Origin: a phage
Sequence record: OP745096.1
Reading direction: 5' to 3' (one strand)
Length of the DNA stretch: 951 nt
The position numbers and the translations under genes were made by a program. The notes beneath the pieces are model-generated. The model did no database searches. It was not told where the DNA came from and saw only the letters and a program-made list of their open reading frames with translations. Positions 1 through 951 of this stretch are shown here, piece by piece (positions within the stretch are counted from its first letter, which is position 1; the number at the start of each line of letters is the position of its first letter).

Positions 1-951
1 ATGACCACCCTGTGGACCGAAAAATATCGCCCGCAGAGCATGGAAGATTATGTGAGCAAAAACGATGCGCTGCGCCAGAAAATGGAAGAATGGATTAAAA
101 CCGGCGATATTCCGCATATTGGCTTTTTTGGCCCGGCGGGCACCGGCAAAACCAGCGCGATTAAAGTGCTGATTAACGGCCTGGTGCAGAACGGCCATCT
201 GGATCCGAGCGATGTGACCACCCTGAACATGAGCGATGAAGGCATTGATGCGGTGCGCGATAAAATTGATGCGGCGGCGAAACTGAGCTGCTTTGGCCGC
301 TATCGCATTTTTGTGCTGGAAGAAATGGAACAGATGAACCATAAAGCGCAGGGCAGCCTGAAACGCGTGATGGAAGATTATCATGAAAACGCGCGCTTTA
401 TTCTGACCAGCAACGAACCGCATAAAATTCAGAAACCGATTATTAGCCGCGTGCAGGTGATTACCATTGAAAAACATGATATGGAACAGTTTATGACCCG
501 CATTTATAACATTCTGCTGGCGGAAGGCGTGGATCTGAGCAGCGATGATAGCGTGGAACAGGTGCAGAAATATATTAACGCGAGCTATCCGGATTTTCGC
601 AAAACCCTGAACGTGCTGCAGAGCAGCGTGGTGGATGGCAAACTGGTGAAACTGGAAGATAGCATTGAAAACAGCGCGGGCTATCGCACCGCGATTGTGG
701 AAGCGCTGAAAGCGGGCAACATTCGCCAGATGCGCGAACAGATTGTGCAGAACATTCCGGATGATGAAATGGATGCGTTTTTTAGCTATCTGTATCGCAA
801 CGCGGAAATGTTTAGCACCGATGAAATTACCCTGATGAAAATTAAAGTGAAAATTCGCGATGCGGTGGTGAAACAGGCGACCGTGAGCGATCGCGAAATG
901 AACCTGAGCGCGCTGCTGTGCGAAATTGATCTGATTTGCAGCGGCAACATG
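1..951 (+). CDS. Sliding-clamp loader AAA+ ATPase subunit (RFC small subunit / phage T4 gp44-like); 3' end open, no stop codon in window
   Basis: Frame 1 is open across all 317 codons from ATG at nt 1. The hand translation begins MTTLWTEKYRPQSMEDYVSK... and contains, in canonical order and spacing, WTEKYRP, GPAGTGKTS (Walker A), LNMSDEGIDAVR (RFC box), IFVLEE (Walker B-like), LTSN (sensor 1), SRV (SRC-like arginine finger) and PDFRKTLNVLQS (sensor 2). The ~317+ aa length matches the ~320 aa typical of gp44 and RFC small subunits. The family assignment rests on remembered motif knowledge, not a database search. Confidence 0.9.
   Translation, partial: MTTLWTEKYRPQSMEDYVSKNDALRQKMEEWIKTGDIPHIGFFGPAGTGKTSAIKVLINGLVQNGHLDPSDVTTLNMSDEGIDAVRDKIDAAAKLSCFGRYRIFVLEEMEQMNHKAQGSLKRVMEDYHENARFILTSNEPHKIQKPIISRVQVITIEKHDMEQFMTRIYNILLAEGVDLSSDDSVEQVQKYINASYPDFRKTLNVLQSSVVDGKLVKLEDSIENSAGYRTAIVEALKAGNIRQMREQIVQNIPDDEMDAFFSYLYRNAEMFSTDEITLMKIKVKIRDAVVKQATVSDREMNLSALLCEIDLICSGNM
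13..33 (+). other. N-terminal W-x-EKYRP clamp-loader signature (residues W5-P11)
   Basis: Translated WTEKYRP. The EKYRP box is the conserved N-terminal motif (RFC box II) of RFC subunits, T4 gp44 and bacterial gamma/tau. Confidence 0.8.
130..153 (+). other. Walker A / P-loop GPAGTGKT (residues G44-T51)
   Basis: Codons ggc ccg gcg ggc acc ggc aaa acc give GPAGTGKT, which fits the GxxxxGK[TS] consensus and closely resembles RFC GPPGTGKT. Confidence 0.9.
223..258 (+). other. RFC box IV-like motif LNMSDEGIDAVR (residues L75-R86)
   Basis: Matches the clamp-loader motif LN-[AG]-SD-x-(R)GID-x-[VI]R located between Walker A and Walker B. Confidence 0.75.
307..324 (+). other. Walker B variant IFVLEE (residues I103-E108), hhhhEE instead of hhhhDE
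   Basis: A hydrophobic beta-strand followed by two acidic residues at the expected distance from Walker A. It aligns to RFC FLDEAD and gp44 VIDEFD, but the first acidic residue is Glu rather than Asp. Confidence 0.7.
403..414 (+). other. Sensor 1 region LTSN (residues L135-N138)
   Basis: The hydrophobic strand FILTSN ending in a polar Thr/Ser-Asn corresponds to the sensor-1 position in RFC (ILSCN) and gp44 (ITANN). Confidence 0.65.
445..453 (+). other. SRC-like motif S-R-V with the putative arginine finger (residues S149-V151)
   Basis: The PIISRVQVI context matches RFC PIQSRCAIF and gp44 PLQSRCRVI. Arg150 is retained and the Cys is replaced by Val. Confidence 0.7.
589..624 (+). other. Sensor 2 helix in the lid domain PDFRKTLNVLQS (residues P197-S208)
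   Basis: Resembles RFC small-subunit GDMRRAxNxLQ and gp44 FPDFRKTIGELD; Arg200 is the likely sensor-2 arginine. Confidence 0.7.

Follow-up and report, generated by a model that had tools for sequence, protein, structure and literature searches.

Gene 60 of Escherichia phage 121Q is predicted to encode the AAA+ motor subunit of a phage replication clamp loader

The phage DNA analyzed here, sequence record OP745096.1 (951 nucleotides; the whole stretch is referred to as the window), encodes a 317-amino-acid protein. With a probability of about 0.9, this protein is the single AAA+ motor subunit of the replication clamp loader of Asteriusvirus or 'Rak2-like' jumbo phages, i.e., the product of gene 60 (g60; protein, gp60) of Escherichia phage 121Q. 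Frame +1 of the window is open across bases 1–951, corresponding to 317 codons without a stop. In a tblastn search of 50,697 phage records, the protein was found in 22, with 100% identity along its entire length of 317 residues, and in another 49 at 60–99% identity. The records with the identical protein belong to Asteriusvirus-type jumbo phages of ∼350 kb and include the Escherichia phages 121Q, PBECO4, SHEFM2K, slurp01, phAPEC6, and Sharanji. In the RefSeq record of 121Q, the protein (YP_009101654.1) is encoded at 45868–46821 and annotated as 'clamp loader of DNA polymerase / clamp loader subunit (T4-gp44-like).' The native gene comprises 954 nt including the TAA stop codon, with an AAGGA ribosome-binding site upstream; hence, the 317 residues represent the whole protein, without a C-terminal extension. 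The protein is already known: public records have listed it under the annotation of a gp44-like clamp-loader subunit ever since the PBECO4 and 121Q genomes, several papers refer to it, and a comparative survey counts the clamp-loader gene in the soft core of jumbo phages (PMC11448039).

Profile, motif, and fold tests agreed in identifying the protein as an AAA+ subunit of a clamp loader. Amino acids (aa) 3–314 matched PHROG 168 ('clamp loader of DNA polymerase') with an E-value of 1e-78 (266 bits), which, judged by the profile score, is far beyond chance; T4 gp44 matches the same family over its full length (447 bits). Among the Pfam models, both DNA_pol3_delta2 and AAA scored above cutoff (AAA, 43 bits against a cutoff of 21), and Gp44_lid (21 bits) and RuvB_N (21.4 bits) were below it. 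The best NCBIfam model was that of the archaeal replication factor C (RFC) small subunit, which aligned end to end (aa 2–311) with 165 bits; the bacterial model dnaX_nterm (TIGR02397) gave 79 bits against a cutoff of 250. In pairwise phmmer comparisons, the highest score was obtained with the Archaeoglobus fulgidus RFC small subunit (112 bits; top RFC small-subunit scores, 104–112 bits), as compared to 74–109 bits for yeast and human RFC2–5, 72 bits for T4 gp44, and 47 bits for Escherichia coli gamma. BLASTP aligned the protein with T4 gp44 at 29% identity over 253 aa (E-value, 1e-26). With the NCBIfam score below the equivalog cutoff, the protein is homologous to the archaeal RFC small subunit, not its orthologue. 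The family is large, with 20,984 representative clusters at an E-value of 1e-3 or below and 226 at 1e-30 or below; each of the best 150 scored at least 133 bits. Defense-system models (PADLOC) gave generic matches of ∼20 bits only, the best being mad8 (20 bits) in the generic P-loop region. The initial annotation, which was made from the sequence alone, had proposed a virus-encoded replication clamp loader of the RFC/gp44 type rather than a bacterial gamma/tau protein. This is in agreement with the identity to an annotated phage gene, the PHROG family shared with gp44, and the higher scores with RFC and gp44 than with gamma; the best profile matches were to clamp loaders and not to RuvB or defense ATPases.

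Motif conservation was evaluated against 118 aligned homologues, the most distant of them at 38% identity (Table 1). The complete clamp-loader motif set that had been claimed for the protein was found, in order, with all eight RFC-box motifs, and its catalytic residues were invariant in all the 118 homologues. Only four residues precede the conserved Trp, which is Trp5. Position 151 of the SRC-type motif is Val in 59 and Cys in 33 of the 118 homologues, and position 107 of Walker B, where the canonical first acidic residue is Asp, is Glu in 92 and Asp in 26; the Glu of the window protein is the single unusual trait of its motif set. The only cysteines of the protein are C97, C307, and C313. 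None of these lies between Walker A and box IV, and no Cys4 zinc module of the DnaX type was found in the 317-aa protein. The native gene also ends without a long DnaX-type extension. Both absences had been pointed out earlier.

Table 1. Features of the window and of the encoded 317-aa protein (nucleotide positions refer to the window).
Feature	Position (nt)	Strand	Remarks
Complete coding sequence, clamp-loader AAA+ subunit (317 aa, stop codon excluded)	1..951	+	Back-translated, non-native DNA
AAA+ alpha/beta nucleotide-binding module, aa 1–157	1..471	+	Model pLDDT mostly 86–96; Pfam AAA, DNA_pol3_delta2
RFC box II LWTEKYRP, aa 4–11	10..33	+	W5 kept in 116/118, P11 in 117/118 homologues
Walker A/P-loop GPAGTGKTS, aa 44–52	130..156	+	G44, G47, G49, and K50 invariant
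RFC box IV LNMSDEGID, aa 75–83	223..249	+	N76 invariant; S78 in 117/118
Walker B VLEEME, aa 105–110	313..330	+	E108 invariant
Sensor 1/RFC box VI RFILTSN, aa 132–138	394..414	+	F133, T136, and N138 invariant
SRC-type motif SRV, aa 149–151, with predicted trans-acting arginine finger R150	445..453	+	S149 and R150 invariant
Helical lid, aa 161–209, with sensor 2	481..627	+	Model helices 161–174, 182–195, 199–209; weak Gp44_lid match
Sensor 2 YPDFRKT, aa 196–202	586..606	+	P197, D198, and R200 invariant
Flexible linker between lid and collar, aa 210–224	628..672	+	Sole low-confidence stretch; pLDDT < 50 at aa 219–224
C-terminal five-helix collar (oligomerization) domain, aa 225–314	673..942	+	Model helices 225–237, 241–251, 254–266, 275–292, 298–314

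Tertiary structure prediction with AlphaFold2, using 77 sequences, yielded a model with a mean predicted local distance difference test score (pLDDT) of 85.4, in which the three domains of a clamp-loader subunit follow one another (Table 1). In a Foldseek search of the PDB, the best 50 matches were all clamp-loader subunits aligned over the full length (320–350 columns), with template modeling (TM) scores of up to 0.76; RFC subunits occupied ranks 1–39, and gp44 appeared at rank 40. Several homologues of 450–678 aa, among them P0203, P0224, and P0314, showed the query match split in two, with the break inside the AAA+ module and close to either Walker A or Walker B. These split homologues carry Intein_splicing, HINT, or LAGLIDADG domains and hence represent intein-bearing clamp-loader genes.

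The initial annotation had further judged the protein to resemble T4 gp44 more than archaeal RFC, citing gp44 segments. The segments were cited accurately, as T4 gp44 carries KIPHIILHSPSPGTGKTT and NFPDFRKT; the placement itself was not borne out, as the phmmer scores (112 bits for RFC against 72 for gp44) and the Foldseek ranks both favor RFC. Over 231 columns shared in a three-way comparison, the window protein was identical to RFC at 79 and to gp44 at 69, and gp44 was identical to RFC at 84. T4 gp44 scored 106 bits in phmmer against the A. fulgidus RFC small subunit, which is above its score with the window protein. The Trp of box II, the uninterrupted P-loop, and RFILxxN are RFC-like traits of the window protein, and the sensor-2 segment PDFRKT is its sole specifically gp44-like trait. 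By these comparisons, the window protein appears no nearer to gp44 than to archaeal RFC and, if anything, slightly nearer to RFC. With one sequence per outgroup, the relation between the window protein, gp44, and RFC appears star-like. The accurate label is a phage-encoded RFC/gp44-type subunit, clearly not gamma/tau.

The mechanisms of RFC and of T4 gp44/62 are established by solved structures, and the T4-type loader is composed of four gp44 subunits and one gp62. The mechanism proposed for gp60 follows from its homology to these two systems. Several copies of gp60 would assemble through their C-terminal collars into a spiral, with ATP bound at the subunit interfaces by K50/T51 of Walker A, E107/E108 of Walker B, and N138 of sensor 1. 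R200 of sensor 2 would act in cis, and the arginine finger R150 would be supplied in trans by the neighboring subunit. The ATP-loaded spiral would bind and open a trimeric ring of the g613 protein (described below) and thread primer-template DNA through its central chamber; ATP hydrolysis triggered by DNA would then release the closed clamp on DNA, where it would tether the gp43-like family-B polymerase encoded by g610. Loaders of the RFC/gp44 type are pentameric and place a sliding clamp on primer-template DNA at the expense of ATP; for gp60, such a role has indirect support from the PCNA-fold gene in the genome. The stoichiometry of such an assembly, the existence of a gp62-like subunit at the A position, and g613 as the physical substrate are points that we infer, whereas the gene identity, the family, the conserved catalytic motifs, the three-domain fold, the single copy in the genome, and the presence of a PCNA-fold gene are results of the analysis.

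The assignment of the window protein is in itself a correct but ordinary finding, and the by-products of the analysis concern its clamp and A-position partners. The related phage CBB has been stated to be without homologues of gp62, gp45, and gp59 (Buttimer et al., 2017; PMC5259590). No gene in the 121Q annotations is named clamp or small subunit. A query with T4 gp45 gave no match among the 121Q open reading frames (ORFs) of at least 50 aa, and a single gp44 homologue only was present. Eleven unannotated genes within or close to the replication cluster (g2, g3, g11, g12, g13, g14, g26, g30, g64, g65, and g613) were scanned against Pfam and PHROG, with no match to a clamp or gp62. Three candidates considered on the basis of size, g64 (267 aa), g63 (226 aa), and g62 (187 aa), were rejected, as three-sequence profiles found nothing relevant in the PDB; g62 and g63 carry virion-protein annotations. 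In distant relatives, the gene block around the loader is conserved, yet no recognizable clamp is present beside it.

A clamp was identified at the level of fold. Three genes downstream of g610, which encodes the gp43-like polymerase, lies g613, with a product of 243 aa. Among 75 records of its family, 3 (Turkey3, Turkey5, and fEgEco12) are labeled 'sliding clamp' and ∼70 'hypothetical.' An AlphaFold2 model of the family (P0121, 90% identical to g613; 29 sequences) had a pLDDT of 92.9 and a predicted TM score (pTM) of 0.89 and showed a duplicated helix/sheet domain. The best 50 Foldseek matches in the PDB were all PCNA, with TM scores of 0.61–0.75 at 10–14% identity; no sequence similarity to gp45 was detectable in the family. 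According to this model, phages of the 121Q type encode a clamp with the PCNA fold, and the loader is therefore not without a clamp in its genome. It is most likely g613 that is the clamp loaded by gp60. The predicted fold supports the three records labeled 'sliding clamp' and thereby completes a trio of clamp, clamp loader, and polymerase for these phages. Confirming by fold a PCNA-like clamp for phages that had been described as devoid of it is mildly new; this point lies outside the window.

The polymerase encoded by g610 terminates in ...NNGFFTW (full tail, ...STASVNNGFFTW), which is hydrophobic and aromatic. A similar tail forms the clamp-binding C-terminus of T4 gp43 (...EEKASLDFLFG), a resemblance in sequence that is suggestive only. 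Regular-expression scans found no canonical PCNA-interacting protein (PIP) box in the polymerase or in the other replication proteins scanned.

The A-position subunit was searched for in the same set of ORFs, which covers the 121Q genome except for a 3.5-kb gap holding structural and NUDIX genes only. A phmmer query with T4 gp62 retrieved nothing, and a hidden Markov model of the gp62 family (43 sequences) found no homologue, with a best E-value of 0.5. Sub-profiles of the collar, the lid, and the AAA+ module of the window family retrieved only gene 60 itself and a ClpA-like AAA+ protein; the 121Q genome thus contains one RFC-like AAA+ gene only. No gp62-type subunit (PF16790/PHROG 225) is present immediately downstream of the loader, and none is named in the annotations of the record. 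Similarly, no 45-44-62 operon with a gp45-family clamp (PHROG 223) was found. The persisting lack of a gp62 or RFC-large equivalent in these searches is likewise a mildly new point outside the window. It is possible, though unlikely, that a homo-oligomer of gp60 loads the PCNA-like g613 trimer without a dedicated A-position subunit, as a single-gene clamp loader of Asteriusvirus/Rak2-like jumbo phages. If true, no simpler natural clamp loader would be known. The evidence fits equally an A-position subunit too divergent to be recognized by sequence.

The gene order around the 121Q loader begins with the large and medium subunits of topoisomerase II (g52 and g53), followed by the structural protein g54, a 103-aa ORF (g55), and g56, whose 172 aa correspond to the N-terminal fragment of a split mini Pol III alpha. 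These are followed by a 114-aa ORF (g57), a GroES-like gene (g58), an 89-aa ORF (g59), the clamp loader (g60), and an NT5C/HAD nucleotidase (g61). No matches were found for g57 and g59 in the searches. Most of the ten-gene block g55–g64 is kept in metagenomic relatives whose loader is only 40–59% identical. The wider region encodes SSB, UvsX/Y/W, a DnaQ-like exonuclease, primase, a gp41-like helicase, Dda, RNase H, and ribonucleotide reductase; the gp43-like polymerase is positioned at the opposite end of the linear 121Q record. The gene features of 121Q correspond to those of 'group 2.2' (Iyer et al., 2021; PMC7824862). The locus is hence rich in replication genes, as expected of a replication clamp loader. 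The immediate neighbors are not those that the initial annotation expected, namely, a small gp62-like subunit and a sliding clamp: the flanks are occupied by the nucleotidase, the GroES-like gene, and the mini Pol III alpha fragment, with the clamp ∼49 kb off. The T4 arrangement 45-44-62 is not conserved here, and g61, which lies in the position of T4 gene 62, was rejected as a gp62 partner, being the NT5C/HAD nucleotidase. The start codon of g61 overlaps the stop codon of the loader (TAATG), an arrangement which suggests translational coupling of the two genes. Two separate GroES/gp31-like co-chaperonin genes were also observed, one (g58) two genes upstream of the loader and the other (g615) two genes downstream of the PCNA-like clamp.

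Certain points weigh against the assignment of gp60 as a clamp-loading motor. The clamp-loading activity is itself a prediction, drawn by analogy with RFC and gp44/62. The score with NCBIfam NF001679 (165 bits) did not reach the equivalog cutoff of 303, though this is expected of a divergent viral member. Walker B carries Glu in place of the first Asp; the replacement is conservative and family-wide, and it may bear on Mg2+ coordination. The 121Q searches found no A-position subunit equivalent to gp62, the large subunit of RFC, or delta, leaving room for a fold-level analogue. Also, the clamp gene is not adjacent to the loader (49 kb apart in the circular Turkey5 record), and the pairing of the two would follow from their co-occurrence and the modeled fold alone.

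The nature of the window DNA raises the question of an artificial or designed gene without a natural counterpart. The window uses only one codon per amino acid, in each case the commonest E. coli codon, whereas the native 121Q gene uses up to six. Its GC content is 49.4% as compared to 36.7% in the native gene, which, with 77.7% nucleotide identity, is its best natural match. Given the single codon per amino acid and this level of nucleotide identity, the window DNA is a mechanical back-translation, and its biological information resides in the protein only. Nucleotide-level features are consequently meaningless, and promoters, skew, antisense ORFs, and DNA searches were set aside; four short antisense or out-of-frame ORFs in the window were dismissed as artifacts of the back-translation. 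The protein is 100% identical to natural phage genes sequenced independently in several countries, so the window is artificial at the nucleotide layer only. At the protein level, the idea of an artificial gene is refuted.

Two other functions were weighed for the natural protein. It could load the host beta clamp (DnaN) in the service of the split mini Pol III alpha-like polymerase, a role that we regard as quite improbable. The loader shows a close and ancient linkage to the mini Pol III alpha fragment g56, four genes upstream, and the linkage is kept down to 40% identity; however, gene linkage alone does not demonstrate interaction. The partner of bacterial Pol III alpha is the beta clamp. 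The window protein is RFC-like and not gamma/tau-like, and the phage encodes its own PCNA-fold clamp near a family-B polymerase. Iyer et al. (2021; PMC7824862) describe the mini polymerase as being of unknown role and devoid of all the other domains that bacterial Pol III alpha has. The probability is very small that the protein is an RFC-like AAA+ ATPase with a role other than clamp loading, be it fork maintenance of the RarA/MgsA/WRNIP kind, a RuvB-like motor, or a defense or anti-defense function. Weak matches to RuvB_N (21.4 bits), Rad17 (24.6 bits), RarA (PDB 3pvs; 31.9 bits), and PADLOC mad8 (20 bits), along with the lack of a dedicated A-position subunit in the 121Q searches, could be taken in its favor. 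These matches are, however, far weaker than those to clamp loaders, and that to RuvB_N is below cutoff. The motifs that distinguish clamp loaders, namely, box II, the SRC-type motif, and sensor 2, all occur in the protein and are invariant, the collar and full-length structural matches are all to clamp-loader subunits, and the gene lies among replication genes in a genome that also carries a clamp gene. The assignment as the motor subunit of a phage replication clamp loader is thus favored.

Comparison with known systems places gp60 within the AAA+ clamp-loader superfamily, along with bacterial DnaX (gamma/tau) and HolB (delta prime), with which it shares the DNA_pol3_delta2 Pfam domain. Unlike DnaX, it is devoid of the Cys4 zinc module and of the tau C-terminal domains, its total length being 317 aa, and its similarity to E. 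coli gamma is low (47 bits). It resembles T4 gp44 (PDB 3U5Z/3U60/8UH7) in being phage-encoded, in its length (∼317–319 aa), three-domain layout, and membership of PHROG 168, and in being the sole AAA+ clamp-loader gene of its genome. The PDFRKT segment is identical in the two proteins, which also have Walker A/B, sensor 1, and the SRC arginine in common. The differences from gp44 include the 29% sequence identity and the absence of the one-residue P-loop insertion (SPSPGTGKT in T4) and the DKIEMMK insert of gp44. Box II contains Trp in the window protein and in archaeal RFC (IWVEKYRP) and none in T4 gp44 (ILEQKYRP). Also unlike T4, the gene is placed outside a 45-44-62 operon with no gp62 partner detected, and the putative clamp partner is more PCNA-like than gp45-like. 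From the RFC small subunits, gp60 differs in being viral, in having EE rather than DE in Walker B and SRV in place of SRC, and in the absence of an RFC-large-type paralogue from the genome. Nevertheless, it is with the RFC small subunits (A. fulgidus RFCS, 2CHQ; Pyrococcus furiosus, 1IQP; yeast and human RFC2–5) that the top pairwise scores and the best structural matches were obtained. Box II LWxEKYRP, GPxGTGKT, RFILxxN, and the collar are common to both, and the presumed substrate is likewise a PCNA-fold clamp.

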